This document shows, in pieces, positions 2,224 through 18,706 of a stretch of 19,720 nt of DNA. Each line of letters begins with the position of its first letter. The stretch's first letter is position 1. The stretch is from IMG/VR virus record IMGVR_UViG_2541047897_000009. One strand, 5' to 3'. Under the pieces are notes generated by a model, which saw nothing but the letters and a program-made list of their open reading frames with translations, did not search any database and was not told the DNA's origin. Both the position numbers and the translations under genes were made by a program. The DNA comes from a virus. Its lineage: Duplodnaviria; Heunggongvirae; Uroviricota; Caudoviricetes.

Positions 2224-2329
2224 CTTACTATAGAGGTACTGCAAAAATACAGTACCTTTTCATTGTATATCTATACAGTTAGTTTTCTCGTAACGAAGCA
2301 ACAACTATCGTTAAGAGGTTACGGGAAGC

Positions 2330-2533
2330 ATGAACACTGACACTATTCCTACAAAAGGCTATATCAGACGCTTCCGCCTGGCTGAATTGCTGGGCGTTAG
2401 TGTATCCACCATCGACCGTAAAGTAAGAAACGGTTCACTACCACGTCCGGTAAAGCTGGGAGAAAAAATAACTGCGTTTGATGCGGTTGAGATTCACAAC
2501 TGGCTGGCAGAACGCCGCGGGAAGGTGGCCTGA
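2330..2533 (+). CDS. alpA: AlpA-family HTH transcriptional regulator / excisionase-like
   Basis: 67 aa; motif RLAELLGVSVSTIDRKVRNGSLPRPVKLG typical of AlpA/Xis HTH proteins. Confidence 0.88.
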   Translation: MNTDTIPTKGYIRRFRLAELLGVSVSTIDRKVRNGSLPRPVKLGEKITAFDAVEIHNWLAERRGKVA

Positions 2534-2964
2534 TGGAAAAGAAAAACCGCCCATTACAGGCGGCTAATTCAGATATTCGCGTATCTGATGTTACGCCCCT
2601 TACAAAATCCCTTCAAGCACCAAAGCGCACACCGAAAAAGCATCGTGCCCGAGTCTATATGCTGCGTACTGGTATAGAGGGATGGACAGAAAATGACATT
2701 CTTCGCTACTGCCGTCTGTCTTCTGGTCGTAACTATGCAACAGAGTTAGAACGCCAGCTTGGAATCACTCTGGAGCGTATCGACGAAAAGAATCCTGATG
2801 GTATCGGAACACACCTCCGCTACCGTTTTTCCTGCCGTGGTGATGTTCTGAAAGTGATCACTCATGTTAACCATCTTGCGAACATAAATGATCACAACGG
2901 ACTTTCTCAGCAGGAAATTGCCGACATTCTGAAACTCTACCCGGACGCGTTTAACGCCGCCTAA
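2533..2964 (+). CDS. Hypothetical protein, 143 aa
   Basis: ATG overlaps alpA stop (TGATG), implying translational coupling; basic N-terminus. Confidence 0.65.
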   Translation: MEKKNRPLQAANSDIRVSDVTPLTKSLQAPKRTPKKHRARVYMLRTGIEGWTENDILRYCRLSSGRNYATELERQLGITLERIDEKNPDGIGTHLRYRFSCRGDVLKVITHVNHLANINDHNGLSQQEIADILKLYPDAFNAA

Positions 2965-2976
2965 CGGAGACTGAAA

Positions 2977-3810
2977 ATGAACATCGAAAAAAGCAGATTA
3001 ATTTCTGAGGCCGCCCCTCATCCGAACGCCTCTCTGGGCACAATTAACGGTAATGAATTTGCCGCAATTGTCCCGGTTATTCCTGGTCATATCGGTGGGC
3101 GTGAAACCAATATTGTTAGCGCAAAAGCGTTACACAAAGCGTTGGGCGTGGGAAAAGACTTCTCTACATGGATCACTGATCGCATCTCTGAGTATGACTT
3201 CACCATTGGGCGCGATTACTCAGTCCATAAAACAATTTCCCCAAATTTGGGGAAAAGCCCGAATGGCGCGGCTTACAGCAAGATTAAGCAGTCTGGCAGA
3301 CCCGGTAAAGACTATCTGTTAAGTGTCGGAATGGCGAAAGAACTGGCAATGATCGAACGCAATGATCAGGGTCGCGCTATCCGCCGTTATTTCATCCAGT
3401 GCGAGGAAGAATTACAGCGTAGCGTGCCTGAAATCGCCGCCCGCTATCGTCGCCAGCTAAAAGCCCGTATCAGTGCCGCAAACAACTTTAAGCCAATGTG
3501 CGATGCGCTGAATATGGCCCGTGCCGAGATGGGTAAAACGACGCAGCAACACCACTACACAAACGAGAGCAATATGATTTCTCGTATCGTTCTTGGTGGG
3601 CTAACTGCTAAGCAGTGGGCGCGGATAAATGGCTATTCTGGCGAACCTCGCGACCATATGAACGCAGAACAGCTTGAGCACCTCTCATATCTCGAAAGCA
3701 CCAATATCACGTTAATTGATATGGGCATGGAATATGAGCAGCGCAAAGGAGAACTCACCCGCCTGTCGCAACGCTGGCTCGCTAAGCGTCTGGAGGCGGT
3801 CCATGTTTAA
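2977..3810 (+). CDS. Phage antirepressor (AntA-like N-terminal domain + KilA-C/AntB-like C-terminal domain)
   Basis: SAKALHKALGVGKDFSTWITDRISEYDFTIGRDY matches the AntA pattern; KDYLLSVGMAKELAMIERNDQGRAIRRYFIQCEEEL matches the KilAC pattern; GGAGA RBS. Confidence 0.85.
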   Translation: MNIEKSRLISEAAPHPNASLGTINGNEFAAIVPVIPGHIGGRETNIVSAKALHKALGVGKDFSTWITDRISEYDFTIGRDYSVHKTISPNLGKSPNGAAYSKIKQSGRPGKDYLLSVGMAKELAMIERNDQGRAIRRYFIQCEEELQRSVPEIAARYRRQLKARISAANNFKPMCDALNMARAEMGKTTQQHHYTNESNMISRIVLGGLTAKQWARINGYSGEPRDHMNAEQLEHLSYLESTNITLIDMGMEYEQRKGELTRLSQRWLAKRLEAVHV

Positions 3811-3985
3811 GCCGACAGGAACACCACAACCTCAAAAACGCTACAAAGATGCCCACGGAGCACTCGTTACTGTCGAAAGCGTGTCTCACAACCGAGTGAC
3901 GTTTTATCGCGACGGGTATCAATCGCCATGCGTACAACCGCTGGCACGTTTCATGAAGGAGTTCGCGGAGGTTAACAAATGCTAA
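3803..3985 (+). CDS. Small phage protein, DUF4222-like (60 aa)
   Basis: Start ATG at 3803 overlaps antirepressor stop (ATGTTTAA); sequence MFKPTGTPQPQKRYKDAHGALVTVESVSHNRVTFYRDGYQSPCVQPLARFMKEF recalls the DUF4222 pattern. Confidence 0.6.
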   Translation: MFKPTGTPQPQKRYKDAHGALVTVESVSHNRVTFYRDGYQSPCVQPLARFMKEFAEVNKC

Positions 3986-4478
3986 CCGCCCAGAAGAAGA
4001 TATTTTCACTGGCCGATATGTCGCCAAAATCCAGCAATATGACAGCAAAATCAGGCATTAATACAGCAGATGCAAGCAAAGTTTATCATTTGCTGGTGGT
4101 AGGAGCGGATGCCTTAACTATGTCAGAAATTACGGTCGATGGTGTTAGCGTTGAGAAGGTCAGCGGCTGCGCCAGAGAATTTCTGGTCGTAGATGGCTTT
4201 CTCTGCTCGCGTAGTGGCTCCACAAAAACCTTCGTCCACACGCGCGACGTTAACGAAATGAGCGCGATGTATTGTGCATCTGGTGCTTCCAATAGTGAGT
4301 TTTCGGAGTCCATAAAAAAGAGCTTGCCGTTATGCGGCAACACGGTTTATGGTTATAAGGCACCTCATAAAACGGGTGCCGGGATTGGCGTCCTGGTAAA
4401 TCGAATGGCGACATATGACGCGCCGAGCGTCTTTTTTTATGTCGTAGGTCTGACTCACCCATTTTTTGGGCGTTGGTG

Positions 4479-4484
4479 TATAAT
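4479..4484 (+). promoter_or_regulatory. Consensus -10 hexamer TATAAT; candidate early promoter of the icd-to-primase operon (poor -35)
   Basis: TATAAT at 4479-4484 preceded by a T-tract; about 155 nt upstream of the icd-like start. Confidence 0.35.
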
Positions 4485-4490
4485 CCAGCG

Positions 4491-4640
4491 CCTTTGTCAA
4501 TCAATGGTGGCTCAGGCAGGGGCTTCTTCGGAAGCGCCGGTATCCATTCGAGCCGGTTACGCCAACCCTGTCTGGGCTACCACCAGCGAAATTGGCGTTT
4601 CCGGTGGTAGCGTTACATGCTATCGAATGGAGGCTGCCAC
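4491..4640 (+). ncRNA. Structured leader; possible P4 CI-like immunity RNA region with seqA/seqB-like repeats
   Basis: UUCG-tetraloop hairpin 4522-4535; 9-bp perfect stem GCTACCACC (4576-4584) / GGTGGTAGC (4603-4611); direct repeats ATGGTGGCT (4504-4512) and ATGGAGGCT (4627-4635), the latter overlapping the icd RBS. Confidence 0.3.
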
Positions 4641-4835
4641 ATGCTGGCTACTACCCCTACCCAAAAACCGCAATTTATCTGGATTATCGCCGCAGTTCGC
4701 CGCGATTGCCCGACAATTACCGCCAAAATTCATCATATTGCTGCCGAGTCTGAACGCGATGCTCGCCGTTCTCTGGTGCGCGATCACGTCTGCTTTTTTG
4801 CTGGTCGTATCCGCATGGAGGTGGCACATGATTAA
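4641..4835 (+). CDS. icd: Host cell division inhibitor Icd-like small protein (64 aa)
   Basis: GGAGG RBS 6 nt upstream; QKPQFIWIIAAVRRD ... ESERDARRSL ... FFAGRI resembles the Icd-like family of P4-type elements (from memory). Confidence 0.6.
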   Translation: MLATTPTQKPQFIWIIAAVRRDCPTITAKIHHIAAESERDARRSLVRDHVCFFAGRIRMEVAHD

Positions 4836-5046
4836 AACCTACGATGTGCATATGGATCCCCTCGAACGCACAAGCCAGATCATCACACTGACAGAAGTGA
4901 TTAACGACATTCTGGTGAGCAACTCTCCCTCACGAGACGAAAGACTGAAGGCGTTACTCGCGATATTGGATCTCGCCGTTCGTGACGTTCATTTCCTGCT
5001 GGAAGGTGGCGAAATGCCAGGAAAAACGGGGGCAACCAATGAATAA
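4828..5046 (+). CDS. Hypothetical small protein (72 aa)
   Basis: GGAGGTGG RBS; ATG overlaps icd stop (ATGATTAA); clean start. Confidence 0.55.
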   Translation: MIKTYDVHMDPLERTSQIITLTEVINDILVSNSPSRDERLKALLAILDLAVRDVHFLLEGGEMPGKTGATNE

Positions 5047-5233
5047 CTCAATTAATGCCCCTCGACTTACGTCCGCACTTCAATTAATCGAGCAAGCAGC
5101 GGCTGTCCTGGTTGCTGTCAGTCTTTCGGCTGAAGAAATGGACGCTGCTGATGTCGTGGATGCGATTAAAGCGTGCTCATCTTTGGTTAACGATGCCCGT
5201 GCAGAGCTGGTAATTCTTGGGGGTGAAAAATGA
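5039..5233 (+). CDS. Hypothetical small protein (64 aa)
   Basis: ATG at 5039 overlaps upstream stop (ATGAATAA); in-operon. Confidence 0.5.
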   Translation: MNNSINAPRLTSALQLIEQAAAVLVAVSLSAEEMDAADVVDAIKACSSLVNDARAELVILGGEK

Positions 5234-5493
5234 ATATCAACTTAATTTATCGTCATCCGTGTGAGCTGGAAATTGAATCATTGCTGAGTCGTGAAGAGCT
5301 ATATCCAGACACATTCACTCTTGCAGATCGCACGACTGAACGGCTTACCAGAGCGCGCACAGGTCTGGTTCATGTGATGAATGAGATTCTTCCATCGGTG
5401 GGAGGGGAACAGGCGACAGTAATCAATAGCTGGCTACAAAAAGTTACCTCCCTGATAGATATCAGTTTAATCGATGCGGAGAGTGCGAAATGA
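5230..5493 (+). CDS. Hypothetical small protein (87 aa)
   Basis: ATGA start/stop overlap with upstream gene; G-rich RBS. Confidence 0.6.
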   Translation: MNINLIYRHPCELEIESLLSREELYPDTFTLADRTTERLTRARTGLVHVMNEILPSVGGEQATVINSWLQKVTSLIDISLIDAESAK

Positions 5494-5711
5494 CCAACAT
5501 CCAGCTCATTGAAGCGCAATGTCGCATCGAACAGGTTCAGACTGTTTTAGGGTTCTGGCTTGAAGGGGCCAGCCCCAGCAACAGAGACAAGTTAATGATT
5601 GGCGCGGTTATGTCACTGCTCAATGGCGTACCAAAAGCTATTCAGGAAGCAGACGAATTGTTGGGCAAATATGAGTTACAGAATCATTCAGGCGAGGCGA
5701 AACATGAATAA
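5490..5711 (+). CDS. Hypothetical small protein (73 aa)
   Basis: ATGA overlap; GGAGAG RBS. Confidence 0.6.
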   Translation: MTNIQLIEAQCRIEQVQTVLGFWLEGASPSNRDKLMIGAVMSLLNGVPKAIQEADELLGKYELQNHSGEAKHE

Positions 5712-6306
5712 TTTCTTAACCTTCCATGCAGAAGCAACGCCTGACGGCGTAAACATCATGCACCGCAGCAACGATGGCATGACAGAACGCGTTGAGACCG
5801 TTTCATATATTGATGCCGTAAATCGTCTGGATGCCGGGGATTATGACGATAAACCAGATGAAGGTATGTCAATACATCTCGCTATTGCCGATGGCGGCAA
5901 CCAGGGATATTTCGATTACACATCACAGCATAACGTCATTATGTGGAGATGGCTGATCGCAACAGTATTCATGCTGGAAATGAGAGAGGAAAACGGCACT
6001 GTCAGCATCATTGATGATACTGGCAATCCTTCCGAAGTGGCTGTTTATTCCAACGGCATCGTCGCCATGCCGCTGTATCCAGTAGCAGAGCGCCTCGCTA
6101 TGGCAAACAACATTGAGGGCGCGATGATAGAACGTTTTGGCATCGAGTCTGGCACAGAACGCGCCATCATTTTCTACAGAGCCATGATGGATGTGGAACA
6201 AGGAGCACTGACTCCATTTGGTCGTGAAACGCTTGCTGAACTTCACAACAGCTTTATAGCTGAACTGAATGAAAACGGCATGCCAGCGGAACCAGTGACG
6301 CACTGA
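5704..6306 (+). CDS. Hypothetical protein (200 aa)
   Basis: Internal ATG at 5704 overlapping upstream stop (ATGAATAA) with GAGG RBS; preferred over the longer 5599 start. Confidence 0.6.
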   Translation: MNNFLTFHAEATPDGVNIMHRSNDGMTERVETVSYIDAVNRLDAGDYDDKPDEGMSIHLAIADGGNQGYFDYTSQHNVIMWRWLIATVFMLEMREENGTVSIIDDTGNPSEVAVYSNGIVAMPLYPVAERLAMANNIEGAMIERFGIESGTERAIIFYRAMMDVEQGALTPFGRETLAELHNSFIAELNENGMPAEPVTH

Positions 6307-6316
6307 GGATGGATCC

Positions 6317-6658
6317 ATGATTACTAAAAATTTCCGACTGAATGCGCTGGCAAATAAGTATGCGTCGGCACTGTATAACCACATTACCTCCACCAGCGGC
6401 GGGGACTATTTCATGGTTGATGCGGACGGCGAGGCCGTCCGTGTGGAAATCGTCAATGGAGTAAAAGGCGTTCGCAGCCTGATCGATAGCTACACACTGG
6501 CAGCCATGAAAGTGTTCTACCCGCAGTGGGAAACCGTGGGGATAGAGCTTCTTGATCGTTGCGTCACTAAGGACGGATTGACTGACGTCGGGCGTGAGAT
6601 ATGGCAAAGCATGGTTAATGACATGGGCGCAACTGTAGCGGGAGGTTCTCATGCGTGA
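6317..6658 (+). CDS. Hypothetical protein (113 aa)
   Basis: GAGGATGG RBS; in-operon. Confidence 0.6.
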   Translation: MITKNFRLNALANKYASALYNHITSTSGGDYFMVDADGEAVRVEIVNGVKGVRSLIDSYTLAAMKVFYPQWETVGIELLDRCVTKDGLTDVGREIWQSMVNDMGATVAGGSHA

Positions 6659-7022
6659 AAATGCAGAAATGGCGCTTAGCTCCGCAATCGGAGAGCAGGT
6701 GGCAAAGATTGCTGGCGCTGTGTGGATTCATAACCTTCATTCTACTGGTGAAGAGAAAATGGCAATTCAGACGCCAGAGGGACGCACCATTACTACATCT
6801 CTGAAGGCGTCAGATGTTTGTGATCTGATTTGCGCATTCATGTACCCAGCAATGAGGACTGTCCACGGCGATAAGTGGAAACTTGCGACAACCGCTGAAT
6901 TTGATATGTGGCTAAACAATGATGGCATGCTGACTGATTACGGAATAACCAAGTGGCAGATGCTGGTTAGCCATATCGCAAACGCTATAGACCACGTGGG
7001 GTACGGTGATGCGAAACATTGA
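6651..7022 (+). CDS. Hypothetical protein (123 aa)
   Basis: GGGAGG RBS; 8-nt overlap with upstream gene; overlaps primase start. Confidence 0.6.
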   Translation: MRENAEMALSSAIGEQVAKIAGAVWIHNLHSTGEEKMAIQTPEGRTITTSLKASDVCDLICAFMYPAMRTVHGDKWKLATTAEFDMWLNNDGMLTDYGITKWQMLVSHIANAIDHVGYGDAKH

Positions 7023-9765
7023 TCTTATCCGTCAGGTTATCAGTGCGTCTGAAAACAACTGGCCTCATGTGCTGGGCTGCCTGAACATAAATGTCCCTGA
7101 CTCTCCGCGCCGTCATGCTCCCTGCCCTGCATGTGGGGGCAAAGATCGATTCCGGTTCGATGACAACGGGCGCGGTAGCTTCATCTGTAATCAGTGCGGC
7201 GCTGGTGATGGACTGGATTTAATTAAACGCGTAAATAACTGCGACACAACAGAGGCGGCGCTTCTTGCCGCTGATGTTCTGGGTATTGATTACCGGACAA
7301 CGGAAACACCAGAAGCCACCAGCCAGAAACGGGAACAACTGGAAACCGAGCGCCAGCGACGCGAACAGGAGCGCCTGAAAAGGGCAGAGAAGGACGAACA
7401 ACAAAGACGGGATACGTTTTCCCGTCAGTTTGATGACATGCGCAGAAAGGCTGTAAACGGCAAATCTGATTATCTGGTTGCGAAAGGGGTAGGTGATTTT
7501 ACATTCCCCGTGTTGCCCGATGGATCTCTGTTGCTGGCGCTGGTGGATAAATCCGGCGCAGTAACAGCAGCACAGACTATTACCTCACATGGTGAAAAAA
7601 GACTCCTGACAGGTTCAGCAAAGCGAGGGGCATATCACGCCATAAACGCACCAGAAACAACACAGAGCATCTTAATCGCAGAAGGGCTGGCAACGGCATT
7701 ATCTGCCCATTTAATTCGTCCAGAGGCGCTGACAGTGGCGGCGATTGATGCCGGGAACCTGTTATATGTCGCCCAGGTACTGCGGGATAAATTTCCTTCA
7801 GCACAAATCATCATTGCTGCGGATAACGACCACAGCGAAGGAAGACAAAACACGGGGAGAATAGCAGCAGAAAAAGCAGCTTTATCTGTTTCTGGATGGG
7901 TGGCATTACCCCCGACAGATCACAAAGCAGACTGGAATGATTACCACCAAAAACACGGCATTAAATGCGCCACAGAAGCGTTCAATAAGTCAATGTACCA
8001 ACCACAGGGTAATGGCGTGAAACAGGAGCCACAGACCATTGAGGGAAGCGATTTTAAGGTTATGGATACCGACCCACTGAAACCAAGAATAGAAAGCCGC
8101 GAGGATGGTATTTATTGGGTATCTCCGAGAGCTGACAGCCAGAGTGGAGAAATCATCAATAACGAAAGCTGGTTATGTTCTCCGTTAAGCGTTATCGGTA
8201 CTGGCAGAGACGATAAAGACCAGTATCTCATTCTTCGCTGGCTGTCGTTTGGTTCTGAAACGCCGACAACCGCTGCCATTCCACTGGCTGATATTGGTGA
8301 ACGTGAAGGATGGCGCACACTTAAAGCTGGTGGGGTAAATGTCACGACCAAAAGCAGCCTCAGAGCAATACTGGCAGACTGGCTACAACGCAGTGGCTCT
8401 CGTGAATTGTGGCGTGTTGCTCATGCCACTGGCTGGCAATGCGGAGCGTACATCATGCCTGATGGGGAAATCATCGGAACACCTGAAAATCCTGTGCTGT
8501 TCAGCGGGAGAAGCTCAGCCGCAGCCGGATATACCGTCTCAGGGAGCGCGAAAAGCTGGCGTGATAACGTGGCGCGTCTGGCCTTTGGTAACTATTCAAT
8601 GATGACCGGGATCGGCGCAGCACTGGCAGCGCCATTGATTGGGCTGGTGGGCGCTGACGGGTTCGGCATTCATTTCTATGAGCAGTCGAGCGCAGGTAAG
8701 ACCACCACGGCAAACGTGGCGAGCAGCTTATACGGCAACCCTGATTTACTGCGGCTGACGTGGTACGGAACCGCGCTGGGGCTGGCAAATGAAGCTGCCG
8801 CCCACAATGACGGACTAATGCCGCTTGATGAAGTTGGTCAGGGCGCTGATCCTGTCAGTGTTTCACAGTCTGCCTATGCGTTATTTAACGGTGTAGGGAA
8901 ACTGCAAGGCGCTAAAGATGGTGGAAACCGGGATCTAAAACGCTGGCGTACAGTGGCAATCAGCACCGGAGAAATGGATTTAGAAACATTTATCGCTACT
9001 TCCGGGCGAAAAACCAAAGCCGGGCAACTGGTGCGACTGCTGAATATTCCGTTGAGTAAAGCAGTACGCTTTCACGATTACCAGAACGGAAAACAGCACG
9101 CAGACGCACTGAAAGACGCTTACCAGCATCACCACGGCGCGTCCGGGCGTGAGTGGATTAAATGGCTGGCAGACCACCAGCAACAGGCTATTAAAACTGT
9201 TCGTGATTGCGAAAGCAGATGGAGAAGCCTGATCCCATCCGATTATGGTGAGCAGGTTCACCGTGTAGCCGCGCGATTTGCCATTCTGGAGGCCGCATTG
9301 TTGTTAGGCGAGGTTGTAACAGGCTGGGATGCTCAGACATGCCGTGATGCGATACAGCACAGCTATAACGCATGGTTGCGCGAGTTCGGCACAGGTAACA
9401 AAGAGCATCAGCAGATTATTGAACAAACGGAGGCATTTCTTAATGCCTATGGGCTTAGCCGTTTTGCACCATTTCCATACAGCCCGGCAGATTTGCCCAT
9501 CAAAGATTTAGCCGGATACCGTCAGCGTGGAGAACATGACGAAAGTCCAATGATTTTCTACACATTCCCGGCCACATTTGAAAAGGAGATCGCATGTGGT
9601 TTCAACGCAAAACAGTTTGCTGAAGTGTTGAAAAAAGCCGGGATGCTAACCCCACCAAACAGCGGTCGTGGATACCAAAGAAAATCACCACGTATTCAGG
9701 GACGACAAATAAACGTTTATGTACTCAATTACCAGCCAGGAGATTACAACTCATCTGAAGAATGA
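7009..9765 (+). CDS. Bifunctional primase-helicase, P4 alpha type (zinc-ribbon primase + Toprim + C-terminal NTPase)
   Basis: CPACGG...CNQCG zinc ribbon; Toprim-like ILIAEGLATALS ... IIIAADNDH; Walker-A-like SSAGKTT; 919-aa ORF (GTG 7006 / ATG 7009). Confidence 0.9.
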   Translation: MRNIDLIRQVISASENNWPHVLGCLNINVPDSPRRHAPCPACGGKDRFRFDDNGRGSFICNQCGAGDGLDLIKRVNNCDTTEAALLAADVLGIDYRTTETPEATSQKREQLETERQRREQERLKRAEKDEQQRRDTFSRQFDDMRRKAVNGKSDYLVAKGVGDFTFPVLPDGSLLLALVDKSGAVTAAQTITSHGEKRLLTGSAKRGAYHAINAPETTQSILIAEGLATALSAHLIRPEALTVAAIDAGNLLYVAQVLRDKFPSAQIIIAADNDHSEGRQNTGRIAAEKAALSVSGWVALPPTDHKADWNDYHQKHGIKCATEAFNKSMYQPQGNGVKQEPQTIEGSDFKVMDTDPLKPRIESREDGIYWVSPRADSQSGEIINNESWLCSPLSVIGTGRDDKDQYLILRWLSFGSETPTTAAIPLADIGEREGWRTLKAGGVNVTTKSSLRAILADWLQRSGSRELWRVAHATGWQCGAYIMPDGEIIGTPENPVLFSGRSSAAAGYTVSGSAKSWRDNVARLAFGNYSMMTGIGAALAAPLIGLVGADGFGIHFYEQSSAGKTTTANVASSLYGNPDLLRLTWYGTALGLANEAAAHNDGLMPLDEVGQGADPVSVSQSAYALFNGVGKLQGAKDGGNRDLKRWRTVAISTGEMDLETFIATSGRKTKAGQLVRLLNIPLSKAVRFHDYQNGKQHADALKDAYQHHHGASGREWIKWLADHQQQAIKTVRDCESRWRSLIPSDYGEQVHRVAARFAILEAALLLGEVVTGWDAQTCRDAIQHSYNAWLREFGTGNKEHQQIIEQTEAFLNAYGLSRFAPFPYSPADLPIKDLAGYRQRGEHDESPMIFYTFPATFEKEIACGFNAKQFAEVLKKAGMLTPPNSGRGYQRKSPRIQGRQINVYVLNYQPGDYNSSEE

Positions 9766-9780
9766 GCTTCTTCATGTGCG

Positions 9781-9912
9781 TAGAAAAGGTGTTGGTTCAG
9801 TTGGTTCAGTTGGTTCAGTTGGTTCAATTTGTAAAGAGTATTGTTTTATAAGTATTTTATTCTTTTTATTGAACCAACACTGAACCAACAACACGGTATT
9901 TTGAACCAACAC
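9781..9912. repeat. Iteron block A (ori-like): 4 tandem GTTGGTTCA, AT-rich spacer, 3 inverted TGAACCAAC
   Basis: Direct copies at 9781, 9790, 9799, 9808; inverted copies at 9870, 9881, 9902; immediately downstream of the primase gene. Confidence 0.8.
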
Positions 9913-9960
9913 AATGTGACTGAATTGATGCGCACAACACCTGGCTGGCATCAGAGAGTG

Positions 9961-10035
9961 TTTTACGAGACTTTCGTAAAATCCTGTGTACAAGGGCGTG
10001 ACGTTTTTGAAAGTGAGCACTACGAAATTTTCGTA
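9961..10035. promoter_or_regulatory. Pair of palindromic operator-like sites sharing half-site TTTCGTA
   Basis: TTTTACGAGACTTTCGTAAAA (9961-9981) and perfect palindrome TACGAAATTTTCGTA (10021-10035), centres about 57 bp apart. Confidence 0.4.
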
Positions 10036-10230
10036 GTTCAAAAAACAGCCTCTGAGAAGTTGTTATGCCTGTTCAGCAAACCATCCGCATAGCTGATCGC
10101 GAATCAAATTACCAATGGAGCCAGAAGCAAGGGCAGAACTGAAAAGCGCCTGCCGTGAAGAGTAATGCGACACCATAAATATAGTTTTTAGAGTCCATAA
10201 AAAACCTGTCAAAACCTGACACACAGAACG

Positions 10231-10263
10231 ATGCCACCAGCTACTGAGCGGTGGCATTTTTTT
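10231..10263 (+). terminator. Rho-independent terminator
   Basis: 8-bp GC-rich stem ATGCCACC / GGTGGCAT with 11-nt loop, followed by 7 T residues. Confidence 0.65.
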
Positions 10264-10358
10264 GTGCTATTTGTTTCATATTTTGCAATTACTATGATGA
10301 ATATTGCGATTTGTGAAACTATAATAACTGTTGTTTTATACAGTTCTAAGGGGGCGTT

Positions 10359-10520
10359 ATGGCTATTTCAGTAAAGCCGGTATTGATAAGTGAGAAGCAA
10401 ATGGAAGCGATAAAGAAAATTCAGGAAGAGCAGCGTAAAAAATCAGGAATTGGAGTAGCGCCAACTCTGCATGAAATTGCACGAGGGTTAATAGATAAGG
10501 CGCTGGCAGGCTGTATGTGA
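10359..10520 (+). CDS. Small protein (53 aa), possible ribbon-helix-helix DNA-binding regulator
   Basis: Below the 60-aa ORF-track cutoff; strong RBS AAGGGGG 5 nt before ATG; predicted strand-helix-helix pattern. Confidence 0.5.
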   Translation: MAISVKPVLISEKQMEAIKKIQEEQRKKSGIGVAPTLHEIARGLIDKALAGCM

Positions 10521-10536
10521 AAATGGATGGCATCGC

Positions 10537-10998
10537 ATGGAACTAAAATTTATTGATAACCCTGTGCGATTACAGGCCTTTCTTAACGAGCCAGGCAATA
10601 CCGAAAATATTGTTGAGCCGGGGCACACGTACTACATCAAGCCTGATGCGGTATATCTCGGCATCTACGAAGGATTGGTGCTGGCTGGCGTTCATGAAGT
10701 GCGTAACTTCTGGCATAGCATTGTTGAATGCCATGCGGTGTACGCCCCCGGATTCCGTGGTGAATATGCACTGCAAGGGCATCGATTATTCTGCAAGTGG
10801 CTTCTCGAAAACTCACCATTCCTTAACAGCATTACCATGGTTCCTGACACCACGAAATACGGACGGGCAATTATCCGTTTGCTTGGCGCTACCCGTGTTG
10901 GTCACCTTGATGATGCTTATATCAGATGTGGTAAACCCGTCGGCGTAACGCTTTATCAGTTAACTCGGCAACAATATAAGGAATTCAGCGAATGTTAA
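10537..10998 (+). CDS. Hypothetical protein (153 aa); first gene of a coupled 4-gene operon, possibly a virion/ejection-protein assembly factor (P22 gp14-like by position only)
   Basis: Clean ORF; downstream gene start overlaps its stop (ATGTTAA). Confidence 0.65.
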   Translation: MELKFIDNPVRLQAFLNEPGNTENIVEPGHTYYIKPDAVYLGIYEGLVLAGVHEVRNFWHSIVECHAVYAPGFRGEYALQGHRLFCKWLLENSPFLNSITMVPDTTKYGRAIIRLLGATRVGHLDDAYIRCGKPVGVTLYQLTRQQYKEFSEC

Positions 10999-11669
10999 TT
11001 ACCCACATAGCTCATAAACATCTCAATCGTGCCGTATACGAAAAAGGCGGTGATGGTGGTGCCTCTAAAGCTCAGGCGAAGGCCCAGCAGCAGGCAATTG
11101 ATTTGCAGCGCGAGCAGTGGAATACGGTGATGAATAATCTCAAGCCGTATGCAGAAGTCGGATTGCCTGCTTTACAACAACTACAAGGACTGATGACTCT
11201 GGAAGGGCAGAATAAAGCCGCGAATGATTTCTTTGGTTCTGGTTTATATAAAACACAGGCAGATCAGGCCCGTTATCAGAACCTTGTCTCAGCAGAAGCT
11301 ACCGGGGGGCTTGGCTCAACAGCTACCAGTAACCAGTTATCTTCCATTGCGCCCATGCTTTATAACAATTGGCTTAGTGGGCAAATGCAAAATTATGGAA
11401 ACCTGCTAAATGTCGGGATGAATGCGGCATCAGGGCAGGCAACAGCAGGGCAAAACTACGCCAATAATACCGGGCAACTCTTGCAGGGGCTTGGCGCTAT
11501 TCGTGCAGGTCAGGCGCAGCAGCCATCCAGTCTTGCGCGTGGTATTGGTGGGGCGGCATCAGGCGCTTTAGCGGGTGCGCAACTTGGTTCCGTTGTTCCG
11601 GGTATAGGTAATGTCGCCGGGGCTATTGGTGGTGGGCTTATTGGTCTTGTTGGGGGGCTTGGATTCTAA
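10992..11669 (+). CDS. Putative virion internal / DNA-ejection protein (225 aa; P22 gp7-like by size, order and composition)
   Basis: AAGGAA RBS; Q/A-rich; glycine-zipper hydrophobic C-terminus (GIGNVAGAIGGGLIGLVGGLGF). Confidence 0.7.
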   Translation: MLITHIAHKHLNRAVYEKGGDGGASKAQAKAQQQAIDLQREQWNTVMNNLKPYAEVGLPALQQLQGLMTLEGQNKAANDFFGSGLYKTQADQARYQNLVSAEATGGLGSTATSNQLSSIAPMLYNNWLSGQMQNYGNLLNVGMNAASGQATAGQNYANNTGQLLQGLGAIRAGQAQQPSSLARGIGGAASGALAGAQLGSVVPGIGNVAGAIGGGLIGLVGGLGF

Positions 11670-13090
11670 TGGCGACATGGCAACTTGGCGGGCTGCCTAG
11701 CATGGCACCGCAAAATGATAATGCTCCTCGTTCTTCCGTTCCTCAGCCTGTGCAGTATCAGCAGCAGCCAAACGTAGGTTTAATGGCGCTACAGGGGCTA
11801 AGAGGCGTTGCTGAGATTAATCAGCAGGCACGTCAACAACAGCGTAAAGCAGAGTTTCAGAAAGCATATGCCGGGGCTTTTGAGTCTGGAGACAGAAACA
11901 AAATGCGCAGTCTTATTTCTGAGTATCCAGAAGAATTTGAAAGCGTTCAGAAAGGGATGGGCTTTATTGATGACGACCAGAGAAATTCTATTGGTCATCT
12001 TGCGACTAGTGCTCAAATCGCATCTTCGCTCGGAACTGGGGCATTTGGAAAATTCATAGCAGATAACGAAGATGAAATGCGTCGCTTGGGAATTTCTCCT
12101 GAGTCTGTTGCCGAAATGCATGTTAATGATCCACAGGGATTCCAGCGGCTTGCTGGTAGTATGGCACTGTTTTCTCTCGGTCATGAGAAGTATTTCGATA
12201 TCAAAGATCAAATGGAAGGTCGGGATATTGAGCGTGGCAAGTTGGCAGAAACAATCCGCAGCAATCAGGCTGGCGAAGCACTTCAGGCGAGAGGGCAGGA
12301 TATTAGCCGAGCAAATGCGTTAACGTCAGCATATGCACCAACAGCAGCAATGCAGAATTACAATCAGTACGCTCAAATGTTAAAGGAGGATCCAGAGGGG
12401 GCGGCGGCATTTGCGGCAGCGGCTGGAATTAATACAAACGCCAAAAAATTAATGAGTGTTAGAGAAAACGATGATGGCACTGTCACAAAATACTACACAG
12501 ACGGAAGTGAAGAGCAGGGAAAACTAAACCAGCCAATATCTGGAGATGGGTTTCGTCCAATAGCTTTGCCAACAGCCCAAAAGATCATGGAAAAGTCGCC
12601 AGAAGGGGCTAAAAAAGCTGCTGGATTTGCATACAGAGTTAGGGATGCTCTTGATTCAATGGATACACTGAAAGGCCAGCTTAGCCCACAGCGAGTGGCG
12701 ATCATTAATAATGCTTTGGGTAATGGGACGCTGGCTAACTTAACGCTCAGCCCAACAGAGCAGCAATACGTTGTTAATGCTAATGACGCAATAATGGCAA
12801 TACTCCGTCAGGAAACAGGGGCAGCTATCGTACCTGCTGAAATGTCAAAATATTATCAAATGTATTTCCCTCAGCCTGGCGACTCCACAAAAACCATTGA
12901 TACCAAGCGCCGGAAGATGGAAAACCAGTTCAATTCGCTGAAAGCTGCTTCTGGTCGAGCTTATGATGCTTTGCGGGTTATTTCAGCAGTTGACAGAGGG
13001 ACTTCTTCTTCGTCGCAGACATTGCCGCAATCTGAGCAGGTATCACAGCCAGCAGCCAGCAGTAACTTTTCTTCACTATGGGGTGATTAA
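11669..13090 (+). CDS. Putative DNA-ejection / internal virion protein (473 aa; P22 gp20-like by size and order)
   Basis: TAATG overlap with upstream gene; low-complexity Q/A/S-rich termini. Confidence 0.7.
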   Translation: MATWQLGGLPSMAPQNDNAPRSSVPQPVQYQQQPNVGLMALQGLRGVAEINQQARQQQRKAEFQKAYAGAFESGDRNKMRSLISEYPEEFESVQKGMGFIDDDQRNSIGHLATSAQIASSLGTGAFGKFIADNEDEMRRLGISPESVAEMHVNDPQGFQRLAGSMALFSLGHEKYFDIKDQMEGRDIERGKLAETIRSNQAGEALQARGQDISRANALTSAYAPTAAMQNYNQYAQMLKEDPEGAAAFAAAAGINTNAKKLMSVRENDDGTVTKYYTDGSEEQGKLNQPISGDGFRPIALPTAQKIMEKSPEGAKKAAGFAYRVRDALDSMDTLKGQLSPQRVAIINNALGNGTLANLTLSPTEQQYVVNANDAIMAILRQETGAAIVPAEMSKYYQMYFPQPGDSTKTIDTKRRKMENQFNSLKAASGRAYDALRVISAVDRGTSSSSQTLPQSEQVSQPAASSNFSSLWGD

Positions 13091-15195
13091 TGGCTAAAGC
13101 ATGGAAAGATGTTATCGCCTCTCCACAGTATCAGGCGTTAGCACCAGAACAAAAAGCGCAGGCTCAGGAGCAATACTTCAATGAAGTCGTTGCCCCGCAA
13201 GCCGGAGAAAGTGTAGCGCAGGCTAAGCAGGCTTTTTATGCTGCCTATCCACTACCATCAACGAATGAAATAGACCGATCCCAATCAGCAACTCAAAATA
13301 TTCAACATACATCATCTGATAATTCTCTTGCGTCAGGGTATGCAAAGTTAGCTACTCAGCAAAGAGAGGGGCTTGAGCGTTCAGCAGAACAGGGAGCCAG
13401 CCTTGGGGCTGCGATGCGCGATGCTATAACAGGCGAAAGCCGAATGACTCCAGAGATGGCGAGACTGCAAAATGTCGACCTTGCCCCAGAGTTAACCTCA
13501 CTCAGTATGGATGCTCTAAAAGCTCGATGGTCTCAACTTTTCGGCTCTGACGCATCTCAGGAAAAGATTCTTCAGAGCATGGGAGCGAAATTAAGGCAGG
13601 ATGAGAAGGGTAACACTATCGTTTCCCTGCCATCCGGTGATTATGCTCTGAACAAGCCGGGTTTATCGCCGCAAGACGTGGCATCGTTTCTGGCTAATGC
13701 GCTGGCGTTTACACCAGCGGGCAGGGCCGGAACGGTGCTGGGGGCCATAGGGAAATCAGCAGCTACAGATTTAGCACTACAGGGAGCCACCAGCCTTGCT
13801 GGTGGAGAAGATATTGATCCGTTACAAACGGTAATTTCTGCTGGCATTGGCGGCATTGGTAAGGGGCTGGAGAATACAGCGAGTGCGGTTTCGAGGGCTG
13901 TTCGTGGTGATATGGCACCGGAAGCGAAAGCCGCTGTTGATTTTGCATCGGAAAGAAACCTGCCGTTAATGACCAGTGACGTACTGAAAGATAAAAACAC
14001 TGTGCAGAGTCTGGCCCAGAAAACAGGCGAAAAAATCCCTTTTTTTGGAACGGGTACGAACAGGTTGAATCAACAACAGGCACGGGAAAATCTGGTCAGA
14101 ACATATAACGATGGTCTGGGAGGCATTTCAGATAAACAGCTTTATGAATCTGCGACTAAAGGGCAGCAAAAATTCATTGAGGCCGCAGGAAAGCGATATA
14201 ACCGCATAATTGACGCTATGGGGGATACCCCTGTCGATCTCTCAAACACGGTAAAAGCTATCGACAATCAGATTGCCGTGTTAAGCCGCCCGGGCAAATC
14301 TCAGGATAGAGCCGCGGTAAAAGTCTTGCAGCAATTTAAAGACGATATCACCAGCGGACCAAATGACCTGCGTCTGGCGAGAGAAAACAGAACTGACCTT
14401 CGAAAGCGGTTCATGAATTCAAACGAGACAGTTGATAAAGACACGCTCCAGAAAGCCAGCGATATTGTCTACAAGGCATATACGCTGGATATGAGAAGGG
14501 CAGTAGCCCAGAAACTGGGTTCAGAAGAAGCAGCCAATATGGCAAGGGTCGATCGCTCATGGTCTAAATTCAATGACATGATGGGAAGAACGCGCGTTCA
14601 GAAGGCAATAGCCAGCGGCAAGGCCACGCCTGAGGATGTAACAAAACTCGTTTTTAGCCAAAGCTCATCAGAACGTTCTCAGCTTTACAGGCTTCTGGAT
14701 GACAACGGCAGGCAGAACGCACGGGCAGCCATAATACAGAATGCTGTAGATAAGGCGACTGATTCGGCGGGGAATATCAGCGTTGAGAAGTTTATTAACA
14801 CGCTACACCGGAACAGAAAGCAATCCGCAACGTTCTTTAAGGGCGTGCACGGAAAGGAACTGGACGGCATTATTAAATACCTCAACGATACCAGACAGGC
14901 GGCAAAGGTTGACGGTCAGAAATTAAACAGCCAGAAACTTTATGGCCTGCTGGTTGGTGGAGGCGCTATAAATGCGGCAGTTCTGGCGGGGATGCTGAAA
15001 ACGGCTGCGTTTGTTGTTCCTGCTGCTGGTGCCGTAGGCGGAGCAGCGAAGGCATACGAAAGCCCTGTTATACGAAATGCCTTGTTACGTCTGGCAAATA
15101 CGCCAAAAGGTAGCACAGCATATGACAGAGCGATCAGTACGGTCACACAATCACTGACCACAGCAGCACAAGCATCGCAAAAGGAAGCTCAATAA
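13090..15195 (+). CDS. Putative DNA-ejection / internal virion protein (701 aa; P22 gp16-like by position)
   Basis: TAATG overlap with upstream gene; A/Q/G-rich; hydrophobic glycine-rich segment near C-terminus (GLLVGGGAINAAVLAGMLKTAAFVVPAAGAVGGAA). Confidence 0.7.
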   Translation: MAKAWKDVIASPQYQALAPEQKAQAQEQYFNEVVAPQAGESVAQAKQAFYAAYPLPSTNEIDRSQSATQNIQHTSSDNSLASGYAKLATQQREGLERSAEQGASLGAAMRDAITGESRMTPEMARLQNVDLAPELTSLSMDALKARWSQLFGSDASQEKILQSMGAKLRQDEKGNTIVSLPSGDYALNKPGLSPQDVASFLANALAFTPAGRAGTVLGAIGKSAATDLALQGATSLAGGEDIDPLQTVISAGIGGIGKGLENTASAVSRAVRGDMAPEAKAAVDFASERNLPLMTSDVLKDKNTVQSLAQKTGEKIPFFGTGTNRLNQQQARENLVRTYNDGLGGISDKQLYESATKGQQKFIEAAGKRYNRIIDAMGDTPVDLSNTVKAIDNQIAVLSRPGKSQDRAAVKVLQQFKDDITSGPNDLRLARENRTDLRKRFMNSNETVDKDTLQKASDIVYKAYTLDMRRAVAQKLGSEEAANMARVDRSWSKFNDMMGRTRVQKAIASGKATPEDVTKLVFSQSSSERSQLYRLLDDNGRQNARAAIIQNAVDKATDSAGNISVEKFINTLHRNRKQSATFFKGVHGKELDGIIKYLNDTRQAAKVDGQKLNSQKLYGLLVGGGAINAAVLAGMLKTAAFVVPAAGAVGGAAKAYESPVIRNALLRLANTPKGSTAYDRAISTVTQSLTTAAQASQKEAQ

Positions 15196-15257
15196 CAGAT
15201 GGCCATGGATGGTTGGTTATAATAGTAATTAGTATTTTTTTCAAATAGTTATGAACA

Positions 15258-15656
15258 TTAACACTTGCCTTTAACATTGCCGACAAATGAGCCTGTAAAT
15301 GAGCCTATATCAGATCGACTAATTGTTCGTGTATGGATCACTTTTCCGTCATTTGAGATTGCCCATGTGACAAGCGTCAGTTGACCATCTCGATAGCTTC
15401 TTCCCATCATGGCATTCGGAGACAGCGGGTAATAATCAATACCTCCACCTATACCATCTTTTGCCAAGATAAGATCCGCCTTCTCTTTACTTATTACCAA
15501 ATGAAAGGTATCTGGTATAGATGATAACTTATAGTTATACCCATCTGAACTTGAGGCTTCTTGTCCTTTCAGATCACCAATAATCCAGCATTCAGCGTTC
15601 GCTCCAAAAGAAGCAAATAATAAACCGGAGACAACCAATCGCTTCAATTGATTCAC
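15258..15656 (-). CDS. Small secreted (periplasmic) protein, about 132-aa precursor, unknown function
   Basis: Near-perfect RBS AAGGGAGGG 5 nt before a GTG start; N-terminal signal peptide (M)NQLKRLVVSGLLFASFGANA with cleavage after ANA; Cys at both ends of the mature protein; convergent with the ejection-like operon. Confidence 0.6.
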   Translation of the reverse strand: MNQLKRLVVSGLLFASFGANAECWIIGDLKGQEASSSDGYNYKLSSIPDTFHLVISKEKADLILAKDGIGGGIDYYPLSPNAMMGRSYRDGQLTLVTWAISNDGKVIHTRTISRSDIGSFTGSFVGNVKGKC

Positions 15657-15768
15657 ACCAACCCTCCCTTTAGCGTTGTTTAGAATGGCAATCATCATAT
15701 ATCCAAGACATGGCATTTGGTACATAGCTTGGGTCGGGATTTCAAATCCGCCCCCGTTGATGGGGTCG

Positions 15769-16136
15769 TTACAGTACGCGCATATCCGCTTTATGTGAAA
15801 CAGGAAGATTTTTCTGATATCACTGCCACAGCAAAACACCAATTTCGTGACCAGTACGCGCGCGAGGGGTATCAGTTGCAAAAAGTTTTGCAACTACGTC
15901 CGACCAGTACGCGCACGATGGAGGGGAGTACCATAAAACTGTTCTCTACATAAGTCAGAGTGGTGGTGATGTGTTGATTATCGGCGTATATGCGCACAGG
16001 ACGCGCTATGACGATGTTTTATGCGGGTACACCAATCACATGATAAATCGCGTTACATGACCTCTCATGTTGTGCTGGTGGTTATCACGACGTTCTGAAT
16101 CTGGCCTTTGCCTGGTATTTTGCGACAAGTACGCGC
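15769..16136 (+). promoter_or_regulatory. Array of four direct repeats (core CAGTACGCGC) with an embedded 18-bp palindrome
   Basis: TTACAGTACGCGC 15769-15781; GACCAGTACGCGC 15849-15861 and 15902-15914 (identical); GACAAGTACGCGC 16124-16136; palindrome TTGCAAAAAGTTTTGCAA 15876-15893 between copies 2 and 3. Confidence 0.45.
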
Positions 16137-16344
16137 GCGTAGCATCGAAATAATCGGATGGCGTATGCTGCTGGTAATATGAAGACCGATAGCATTAACC
16201 GAAAGGAGAAAGACTTCTCGATAACGGCAAGGGGGCTGAATTGCGAGGCGAGATTAAGCAACTGTCTTGAACGTAAAAATCATGGAGCAACATGATGGTA
16301 CGATTCATTCCATTCTTCGTTCTTTCTGAGCATTGCGTTCAGGC

Positions 16345-16680
16345 TTAGTCAAAATTAGTGTTGCGAGCGGACCTATTAGTAATTGTTGGTGCGATGCGCC
16401 TGTTATGGATTGTTATGGTTGTGGCAGGCCTGATTAATATCCAGTATGACCACCAGCTATGAGAGGCCACCTCAGTGGTTCGCAGTTGCAGGTTTGCACT
16501 CAGGTTCGCAGGGTTTTGGCTACTTTCACGTGCGAACCTGCAGAATTGCAAAGGACAACTAAGTCCTCTGGCCAACTCCCGGTTTATGAGCGACACAGTC
16601 CGCCTGGCGCGTCGTTTTCGTCGAGTGCGCCCATCAGCTTGTCCATGGACTATCCACCACTCGATATTAAAGCTAATCAT
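16345..16680 (-). CDS. Dubious ORF (111 aa) translationally coupled to alpA2; possibly a decayed gene or non-coding structured region
   Basis: ATGA overlap with alpA2 stop, but the protein is W/R-rich and unprotein-like; two + strand frames are also open across the same stretch. Confidence 0.2.
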   Translation of the reverse strand: MISFNIEWWIVHGQADGRTRRKRRARRTVSLINRELARGLSCPLQFCRFARESSQNPANLSANLQLRTTEVASHSWWSYWILIRPATTITIHNRRIAPTITNRSARNTNFD

Positions 16681-16862
16681 TGGTTGCCAGCCCGCGAATC
16701 AAGTTTGTTCTGGATCCAAGCTTCAACCTCCTCAAGCGACCATCTAGCTGATCTACCAATTTTAACTGGCTGTGGAAACGTGCCCGTCTTAACCCATGAG
16801 TAGATTGCCGTTTTCTTGAAGCCCGTTCTGAGCATGACTTCGCTTAATTTGATAAGGCGCAT
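16677..16862 (-). CDS. alpA: AlpA-family HTH regulator (second copy, diverged)
   Basis: 61 aa; LRTGFKKTAIYSWVKTGTFPQPVKIGRSARWSLEEVEAWI; GAGGAG RBS. Confidence 0.85.
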   Translation of the reverse strand: MRLIKLSEVMLRTGFKKTAIYSWVKTGTFPQPVKIGRSARWSLEEVEAWIQNKLDSRAGNQ

Positions 16863-17114
16863 AGAGGCTCCTCTGCTTTAGATTAAGCATAGTGACAATC
16901 TGGCTTCGGGCGGTATCCAAAAGCGAGGTATCCATGTTGGTATCCACCAAAACGCTGTTTACCAAAAAAGTTACCACCGGAACAGGACATTTTGAGCTGT
17001 AACTTAACACATAGCATATGGAGTTCACGCATAGACTTCACGCACAACGGCTCCGGCCAGTGAAGAATCACCCTGGCTGGCAATATAATGCCGATCACCA
17101 TCAGAGGGGAATCC

Positions 17115-17306
17115 ATGACACCACGAGAAATCGAGCTGCTGACCATTGCCAAGCTGGAGCATGACGGCCACCAGCTCAGCCCGGCAGAACTGTGGGAATT
17201 AAGGCGCCAGCTGGCAGAGGGCCCTGTAATAGCCAGGCGGTACCGCGAAATGATGACCAGCCCCGCATATCGCTGGAGCAAACCAGCGCCGCTCCGTGCG
17301 CGGTGA
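17115..17306 (+). CDS. Hypothetical small protein (63 aa), divergent from alpA2
   Basis: AGAGGGG RBS; internal ATG 17115 preferred over 17088; TATAAT at 17084-17089 upstream. Confidence 0.45.
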   Translation: MTPREIELLTIAKLEHDGHQLSPAELWELRRQLAEGPVIARRYREMMTSPAYRWSKPAPLRAR

Positions 17307-17378
17307 GCAGCACCTAACCAGCACTAGACAAGCCCTGTGCTGGTGGATGTCCCTCATAATTAGCGGTTTTTAAACGGC

Positions 17379-17503
17379 GTGTTGGTTCACGGCCTCTTTT
17401 TGTTGGTTCAAAAATGGGGTGTGTTGGTTCACTTTTTGCGAATAATCCTTTTAAAAACAATACTCTTTACAAATTAAACCAACTGAACCAACTGAACCAA
17501 CAC
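17379..17503. repeat. Iteron block B (crr-like): inverted copy of block A
   Basis: GTTGGTTCA at 17381, 17402, 17423; spacer AACAATACTCTTTACAAAT is the reverse complement of the block-A spacer; (T/A)GAACCAAC at 17475, 17484, 17493. Confidence 0.8.
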
Positions 17504-17537
17504 CTTTTTGCTTATCTATATAGTCTGAGAGGCAGAA

Positions 17538-17825
17538 ATGATAAGGGACAGGAAAGCTGAAGAGCTGGAGTCAAAAGGGCTATGCCGGAGAGCTGCCACA
17601 CGATGGGCAGAAGTCATGACGCTGGCAGATGGCGATAAAGAACGTGAACATGCAGCAAACAGACGCTCTGAATGTATCCGTAGGGCGGCACGCCCACCAG
17701 CAACTACAGACAGATTCGGAGATTTAAGACAGGCAGTTAAGCGAACTCATTCGGCTCTTGGTATGGATGAGGAAGCGAGAGGGTACTTCAGGCGTTATCG
17801 CGATAGAGATTGCCAGAGACAGTAA
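17538..17825 (+). CDS. PerC-family transcriptional regulator-like protein (95 aa)
   Basis: AEELESKGLCRRAATRWAEVM resembles the conserved PerC/Pch N-terminal motif (from memory); GAGAGG RBS. Confidence 0.65.
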   Translation: MIRDRKAEELESKGLCRRAATRWAEVMTLADGDKEREHAANRRSECIRRAARPPATTDRFGDLRQAVKRTHSALGMDEEARGYFRRYRDRDCQRQ

Positions 17826-18698: not shown

Positions 18699-18706
18699 TT
18701 ATACCC

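Follow-up and report, generated by a model that had tools for sequence, protein, structure and literature searches.

The best-described relative of the locus analysed here is EcCIMP1, a phage-inducible chromosomal island (PICI) of Escherichia coli MP1 that is mobilised by the P22-like phage vB_EcoP_Kapi1 (Pick, Stadel, Raivio, ISME J 2025; PMC11773190), which these authors describe as a close relative of P22. EcCIMP1 excises, circularises and is transduced only with this temperate helper, and alpA is required (PMC11773190). The published map shows an 'antirepressor', and conservation among the relatives of the island is highest for the antirepressor, Ash and primase genes (PMC11773190); a 2026 survey lists 'AntA/AntB, BRO and Rha antirepressors' as recurring among the accessory genes of Enterobacter PICIs. 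We analysed a stretch of 19,720 nucleotides (virus record IMGVR_UViG_2541047897_000009; the whole stretch is hereafter the window), which is an island located between yicC and dinD of E. coli, and in particular the gene pair at 2977-3985, which consists of antA and a gene of the DUF4222 family. We propose, with moderate confidence, that this pair belongs to the alpA (P4 vis/PLL-type) operon of a PICI of the EcCIMP1 family, that it is translated as part of a ribosome relay, and that AntA is likely a DNA-binding early regulator.

The order of genes in the island is integrase, orf316, alpA, orf143, antA, DUF4222, an open reading frame (ORF) annotated as 'ash family', six small ORFs, a Toprim/DUF927 primase and cargo, which comprises P22 gp14/gp7/gp20-like genes, PerC and a Doc toxin. 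An int-alpA-...-primase arrangement and a chromosomal att site are present, and phage structural and lysis modules are absent, as in Gram-negative PICIs. Positions 2523-11829, from orf143 through the start of the ejection-gene cluster, are 97.9% identical to EcCIMP1, and the satellite-type backbone that the original prediction had recognised is thus that of an experimentally demonstrated PICI. The DUF4222 proteins of the two islands are identical and have the same accession, and the AntA proteins differ in approximately 7 of 277 residues (~97% identical). Both islands carry PerC and P22-like ejection genes, whereas the integrase, the alpA gene and its promoter differ, as does the distal cargo, which in the window includes the Doc toxin; EcCIMP1 is integrated in tRNA-Thr next to proA, as opposed to the yicC-dinD site of the window. 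Judged from sequence, the antA-DUF4222 module is already known at the level of annotation, because it is the same as in the published PICI.

The whole 2977-3985 interval is occupied by two ORFs on the plus strand, with the following features (aa, amino acids; nt, nucleotides):
2977-3810, plus strand: antA-family gene, 277 aa, with an N-terminal AntA domain and a conserved, uncatalogued helical C-terminal domain; basic product, pI 9.4
3803-3985, plus strand: DUF4222 gene, 60 aa, a small Tudor/SH3/KOW-like beta-barrel followed by a helix
3803-3810, plus strand: overlap of the DUF4222 start with the antA stop, ATGTTTAA, 8 nt, with GGAGG at 3791-3795, 8 nt upstream

The Pfam AntA model (PF08346) matches aa 47-129 of the first ORF over the full profile (E = 1.3e-21, 77.4 bits), and DUF4222 (PF13973) matches the second ORF over profile positions 2-53 of 53 (E = 6e-25, 87 bits), against a gathering cut-off of 27 bits for both models. 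Because the whole profile is matched, the second ORF is a genuine member of DUF4222, a firmer assignment than the 'DUF4222-like' of the original prediction. In PHROGs, antA falls into families labelled 'anti-repressor Ant', and the DUF4222 gene into families of unknown function. Compared to the orthologues from Citrobacter and Klebsiella, antA has a ratio of nonsynonymous to synonymous substitution rates (dN/dS) of 0.10-0.15, and for DUF4222, the proportion of nonsynonymous differences (pN) is 0.18 vs. a saturated proportion of synonymous differences (pS) of ~0.8. Both genes are therefore real and constrained by purifying selection. The overlap between them (ATGNNTAA/GTGNNTAA) is retained in the Citrobacter and Klebsiella relatives, and the pair is present, at a coverage of at least 80%, in 617 of the 5426 complete E. 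coli genomes.

The pair is embedded in a longer chain of genes, the other members of which, outside the immunity leader, are:
2238-2278, plus strand: two palindromes upstream of alpA, candidate operators, by sequence reading and pattern search, of the promoter expected to drive antA and DUF4222
2330-2533, plus strand: alpA, first gene of the operon, encoding a P4 vis-type helix-turn-helix (HTH) regulator/excisionase (Pfam Phage_AlpA, E = 2e-8; 34% identity to P4 Vis)
2533-2964, plus strand: orf143, encoding a basic protein; start ATG overlapping the alpA stop by a single base (TGATG); dN/dS 0.16-0.22
5039-7022, plus strand: six small ORFs, overlapping or abutting, through which the chain reaches the primase; no epsilon-like gene among them
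7006-9765, plus strand: primase, end of the operon, with Zn-ribbon, Toprim and DUF927 domains; its N-terminal 360 aa share 33% identity with P4 alpha

The overlaps in the chain from alpA to the primase are 1, 8, 7, 8, 4, 4 and 8 nt long, and every junction after DUF4222 down to the primase is overlapped or abutting. The translational coupling of antA and DUF4222 that was originally predicted is thus borne out by the 8-nt overlap with its GGAGG, kept in relatives, but it is not peculiar to this pair, given that the whole operon is chained. The overlaps are best read as an operon-wide ribosome relay that would end on the immunity leader, rather than as a dedicated pairing of AntA with DUF4222. 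A promoter scan found no sigma-70-like sites on the plus strand from alpA to DUF4222, so that expression of both genes should depend on the alpA promoter, from which they are probably co-transcribed. The first of the two palindromes upstream of alpA, GGTACTG-N8-CAGTACC at 2238-2257, consists of perfect 7-bp inverted arms set 8 bp apart, and the second is a near-LexA-box, TTGTATATCTATACAG, at 2263-2278. Neither is conserved: both are absent upstream of alpA in relatives, EcCIMP1 included. A canonical LexA box before alpA was considered and rejected, as CTG-N8-CAG has the wrong spacing and TTGT...ACAG carries one mismatch, and the site is kept as a lead only. The orf143 product had no family match in profile searches; its gene accompanies antA in E. 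coli, Citrobacter and Klebsiella.

The relay would deliver ribosomes into an ORF that is read through the immunity leader, and the pair lies upstream of this leader, as the original prediction had placed it:
3979-5046, plus strand: ORF3, 355 codons, with an 'ash family' annotation; start codon overlapping the end of DUF4222 (ATGCTAA); frame continuing through isrK and C4
4324-4353, plus strand: candidate PLE-type promoter, TTGCCG-18-TATGGT, recognised by eye, with a putative start at ~4360, the first base of the isrK model
4360-4437, plus strand: isrK/P4 seqA-type leader RNA (Rfam, 67 bits), with an intrinsic terminator (stem 4417-4431 and T-run)
4500-4587, plus strand: C4/CI-type antisense immunity RNA (Rfam, 79.5 bits)
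4617-4835, plus strand: Icd/Kil-like ORF, 72 aa, annotated as Icd-like in relatives

The strict promoter scan did not recover the candidate promoter at 4324-4353. Complements of the C4 loop are located within isrK (TCGAATGG at 4401-4408) and downstream at 4623-4631, which is the seqA/seqC arrangement; isrK has been described as a structural homologue of the P4 seqA leader (IsrK paper). No loop complement lies within 2977-3985, and C4 antisense control of antA and DUF4222 is accordingly rejected, as the loop-complementary sites are those at 4401 and 4623 alone; an 8-mer at 3201 pairs with stem and not with loop sequence, and we take it as a chance match.

The ORF that begins on the DUF4222 stop is open in the window, EcCIMP1, a sister contig, Klebsiella and Citrobacter, and across four lineages, its frame contains 0 stops, whereas the two alternative frames have 3-26 (15-26 for the window and for Citrobacter). 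The Pfam Phage_ASH match on aa 124-232 of ORF3 coincides with the stretch that encodes the isrK and C4 RNAs. The Citrobacter region that corresponds to ORF3 shows no DNA-level alignment to the window and no isrK or C4 match. In the Citrobacter freundii stretch (9000-9995), alpA-orf143-antA-DUF4222 is followed by a long open ORF, and a DUF3950 gene is encoded on the other strand (9431-9613). The slot may thus hold another kind of immunity cassette in Citrobacter; DUF3950 was seen in one further relative. In P4, the counterpart of ORF3 is a 199-codon ORF, taken here to be eta, which extends over the CI RNA and whose first ATG overlaps the end of vis (ORF88). The N-terminus of this P4 ORF, MMMPALQKLPFSGL, matches the N-termini of the island ORFs, and the motif M-x-T-x-Q-K-x-F-P-x-A-G-L is common to the ORFs of P4, the window, Klebsiella and Citrobacter. 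The Icd/Kil-like ORF is in a frame different from that of ORF3 in the window, and in the same frame in Klebsiella and P4.

These features suggest a mechanism in which firing of the alpA promoter would hand ribosomes from gene to gene into ORF3, and in which translation of ORF3 would carry on over the isrK terminator and the C4/CI immunity RNA. In this way, transcripts that start at the upstream promoter would escape immunity-dependent termination and reach the primase, unlike those from the internal constitutive promoter, which would be stopped. In P4, translation of eta from PLL transcripts reportedly makes these insensitive to immunity termination.

With respect to AntA itself, the original prediction of a full AntA/KilAC antirepressor holds for its first half and fails for the second. 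KilAC/ANT (PF03374) has no match up to E = 10 on aa 129-277, and among the two-domain members of the family that we checked, 38 of 38 match AntA and none matches KilAC. The C-terminal ~145 aa form a conserved domain, with the motifs HYxNE and LxxLExxN...RK, that is kept down to ~30% identity and has no entry in Pfam or NCBIfam. The family profile had no sequence match among the sequences of solved structures; the sole significant structural neighbour among solved structures is DdrC, a DNA-binding protein of Deinococcus radiodurans (PDB 7qvb, 7udi, 8u0g). The predicted AntA structure is that of a DdrC-like two-domain protein, with a winged-helix-like AntA domain and a helical bundle. This likeness is at the fold level only, with 13-17% sequence identity and a low global template-modelling (TM) score, which results from a different orientation of the domains, and the biology of DdrC, namely, the DNA-damage response and nucleoid compaction, is unrelated to the setting of AntA. 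We nevertheless infer that AntA binds DNA and would most likely serve the induced satellite as an early regulator or an architectural factor, produced once the helper has been sensed; a role as the trigger of helper induction appears less likely.

The neighbourhood of AntA points in the same direction. In relatives that are 42-74% identical, AntA directly follows alpA, Bro-N or orf143; in one, whose AntA is 56% identical, the order is alpA, AntA, Ash, with an 8-nt overlap of the Ash ORF on AntA and without DUF4222 or orf143, and in another, whose AntA is 42% identical, it is alpA, Bro-N, AntA. Because this neighbourhood is kept across relatives, AntA belongs to the core of the alpA operon in these islands. 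The closest phage homologue, from Edwardsiella phage EPP-1 (64% identical), is located in a lysis cassette between endolysin and Rz, next to an apparent moron, and we discarded this context as uninformative with regard to function.

A match of AntA aa 165-266 (window 3469-3774) to the PADLOC candidate PDC-S22 (E = 4e-11) suggests another possibility, namely, that AntA, alone or together with DUF4222, serves in interference or defence, by contributing to superinfection immunity against Kapi1 or by acting on non-helper phages. EcCIMP1 does add superinfection immunity against Kapi1 in Kapi1 lysogens (PMC11773190). However, the PDC candidates are predictions from guilt by association, and satellites are defence hotspots, so that core satellite genes can be swept into such sets; AntA is a conserved core gene of a regulatory operon rather than variable cargo, and the P22-like ejection-protein genes are at least equally good candidates for superinfection immunity. 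We consider a defence role for AntA to be very unlikely.

The original prediction held that AntA derepresses a helper through a lambdoid/P22-type antirepressor route, as opposed to an epsilon-like one. Under this explanation, AntA would be a genuine antirepressor, able to bind the CI/C2-type repressor of a P22-like or other lambdoid helper prophage and so to induce the helper or lock its induction in; DUF4222 would be a co-factor, and AntA would equal P4 epsilon in function while being an unrelated protein. Some of our observations are compatible with it. No ORF of the window, small ORFs included, matches PF25738 or, in BLASTP, P4 epsilon, so that the predicted absence of an epsilon-like route agrees with the gene content. 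In Pfam, Phage_ASH represents the P4 cI/eta ORF, and P4 epsilon belongs to a separate family (PF25738, 'Derepression'), and therefore a survey that takes PF10554 as an epsilon marker conflates the two. A P22-like helper, also predicted, fits both the mobilisation of EcCIMP1 by the temperate Kapi1 and the P22 gp14/gp7/gp20-like genes of the window. In P1 and Gifsy-1, C4-type RNA cassettes control antirepressors; SOS-driven expression is conceivable, given the near-LexA-box upstream of alpA; and the Ant protein of phage Phi24B, a putative antirepressor with 82% identity to P22 Ant over its last 104 residues, is reported to play a likely part in assisting prophage induction (PMC3064807).

Direct comparison of AntA to known antirepressors, however, yielded no link. 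P22 Ant consists of PF10547 (P22_AR_N) and PF10548 (P22_AR_C), neither of which is found in AntA, and the two proteins are not significantly similar (BLASTP E = 0.36; hidden Markov model (HMM) of the AntA family, E = 0.63). P1 Ant1 matches KilAC alone (vs. AntA, BLASTP E = 0.03 and family HMM E = 0.29, not significant), and Gifsy-1 AnrP is an ORF6N protein (BLASTP E = 5.3, not significant). Genes 41-46 of N15, presumably the region of the N15 antirepressor genes (their identities are not annotated in the record), showed no significant similarity to AntA or the family HMM (HMM E at least 0.2). Homology of AntA to any of these proteins is accordingly rejected, and what P22 Ant, P1 Ant1/Ant2 and AnrP share with AntA is just the annotation word 'antirepressor'. 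The antirepressors of P1 and Gifsy-1 do, like antA, accompany a C4/isrK-type RNA cassette, but ant1 and anrP lie downstream of the RNA that controls them, whereas antA is located upstream and has no C4 target. The 'Ant' of Streptococcus phage TP-J34, a putative antirepressor, is 33% identical to AntA, but the factor reported to inhibit the TP-J34 repressor is Rir.

Results on EcCIMP1 also argue against AntA as an inducer. Its alpA promoter is switched on when the helper is induced and not by mitomycin C alone, and deletion of the whole island changed neither Kapi1 titres nor the Kapi1 CI-lux reporter (PMC11773190). Moreover, a Kapi1-like prophage is present in only 2 of the 21 strains that carry EcCIMP1 (PMC11773190). 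Helper derepression by AntA is thus unsupported, though not refuted, by these data, and we regard it as a doubtful possibility. That an 'antirepressor' family appears to have no link to the validated antirepressors tested is, in our view, a useful new point.

The DUF4222 protein can be compared to two characterised homologues. RgdR (ECs1581, OI-51/CP-933C) and its CFT073 orthologue C1493 are the only characterised DUF4222 proteins, and RgdR is a pleiotropic modulator of transcription with weak, non-specific DNA binding that regulates virulence genes of enterohaemorrhagic E. coli (EHEC) (PMC3378721). The window protein is 39% identical to the core of C1493 over 44 aa (E = 5e-13), and its NRVTFYRDG motif is invariant in 21 relatives. 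RgdR is longer, at 99 aa, and has a basic tail at its C-terminus as well as an RGD motif (residues 20-22) that influences its activity. The window protein, of 60 aa, has neither of these two features; it reads KRYKD where C1493 has RGDIYRD, and the C-terminal 32 aa of C1493 are missing. DUF4222 genes without AntA overlap the primase start in a capsid-encoding island and in the CFT073 island, where C1493 (DUF4222, 99 aa) does so within an int-alpA-Icd-primase-SSB-PerC-capsid island (10176-19001 of the analysed stretch). A short antA-like remnant was also observed in the CFT073 island, at record positions 1388080-1388156. DUF4222/RgdR-type proteins are thus components of island replication operons, which is among the useful new points of this analysis, and because DUF4222 is missing beside some AntA genes and present elsewhere without AntA, it is facultative. 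Within the proposed relay, the window protein would be a facultative small Tudor-like protein of PICI operons, related to RgdR. P4 ORF151 (7440-7895) was examined as a remote DUF4222 relative and is not claimed as one: its N-terminal half shows two short collinear matches (PQPxxxY..., PLxRFLxEF) that fall short of significance (E = 0.064 in a set of 6 sequences), and Pfam gives no match.

The coupling of DUF4222 straight to the primase gene in other islands, together with the DdrC-like two-domain architecture of AntA, could indicate a different function for the pair, in which AntA would be an accessory of replication, circularisation or packaging that acts on satellite DNA, by DdrC-like binding or bridging of ends, and DUF4222 would be primase-associated. 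It is consistent with this possibility that no packaging-redirection gene was recognised in this island family. Given, however, that DdrC is similar in fold and hardly in sequence, that AntA is encoded at the regulatory end of the operon, beside alpA, and that no origin or pac site is mapped in the window, we find this explanation improbable, to about the same extent as a defence role. The fold of DUF4222 also resembles the RNA-polymerase-binding Tudor/KOW modules of CarD, UvrD and Spt5. In the boldest version of the antirepressor hypothesis, AntA would inactivate P22-like or lambdoid repressors as a convergent replacement of epsilon, so that the helper is induced on arrival or under SOS, and DUF4222 would aid the alpA transcript through the C4 terminator, making the pair a two-part module that wakes the helper and circumvents the immunity of the island itself; we consider this unlikely.

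Several points weigh against the proposal of a relay-translated pair with a DNA-binding AntA. The alpA gene and promoter of the window are not homologous to those of EcCIMP1, and because of this difference, the dependence of expression on a helper is assigned to the window by analogy only. The ash ORF of EcCIMP1 is called a pseudogene by the PGAP annotation pipeline; we read it here as open for 355 codons. ORF3 of the window has left the ancestral eta/kil frame, and therefore its product may be meaningless and translation alone may matter. Finally, a DdrC-like fold neither proves DNA binding nor excludes an antirepressor activity through protein-protein contacts, and Phi24B Ant, with its P22 Ant-like C-terminus, is reported to be likely to assist prophage induction.

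Beyond the operon, the 'ejection-like cargo' of the original prediction corresponds to a run of P22 homologues at 10537-15195, which encodes gp14 (DUF2824), gp7 and gp20 (Inj_translocase) homologues and then a 701-aa protein without a Pfam match. A perfect LexA-box core, CTGTTGTTTTATACAG, at 10320-10343, directly after TATAAT, precedes a 53-aa ORF (10359-10520) and this cluster, and the ejection-protein cargo may therefore be under SOS control. At the distal end of the island, on the minus strand (18237-19720), there is a Fic/Doc toxin gene, followed by a gene for a 337-aa HTH protein that runs off the window. The int-alpA RNA of Rfam (RF02996) is present between the integrase and the next gene in three relatives (at ~2687-2753 in two and at 2673-2739 in one) and has no match in the window. 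The record NZ_LT599831.1 (19,226 bp, 'phage_14408_2') is a circular permutation of a sister island, with the PerC-to-integrase junction internal, an arrangement that would be expected of an excised, circular or packaged form.

The pair is common, given that approximately 1/9 of the complete E. coli genomes carries antA-DUF4222, and similar genes of the AntA, Bro or Rha kind have been described from other enterobacterial PICIs. Should AntA indeed derepress a helper, mutual induction would be practised by PICIs as well as by P4; should it be an early regulator that binds DNA, thousands of annotations would carry a misleading 'antirepressor' label. The ribosome relay provides a testable account of how an upstream promoter could escape P4-type RNA immunity in PICIs, and the CFT073 orthologue of RgdR, the EHEC virulence-gene regulator, is encoded in the replication operon of such an island. 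We consider the putative P4-style eta relay hosting an inserted module and the predicted DdrC-like fold of AntA to be further useful new points.

The left operon of P4 runs PLL-vis-eta/cI-kil-epsilon-orf151-cnr-alpha. P4-type markers in the window are confined to alpA, Ash, the alpha-like primase and the integrase; no psu, delta or sid family was found among the window ORFs scanned, and in the SatelliteFinder sense the island is not a P4-like satellite. It differs from P4 also in the absence of epsilon (PF25738) and in the type of helper, P22-like vs. P2. It resembles P4 in having vis/alpA, a long ORF across the C4/CI RNA, seqA- and seqC-like targets, an Icd/Kil-like ORF, an alpha-type primase and start/stop overlaps. 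The window carries orf143, antA and DUF4222 between alpA and the eta-like ORF, a place where P4 has none of the three, and compared to P4, they would have been inserted there with the start/stop overlaps kept at the junctions.

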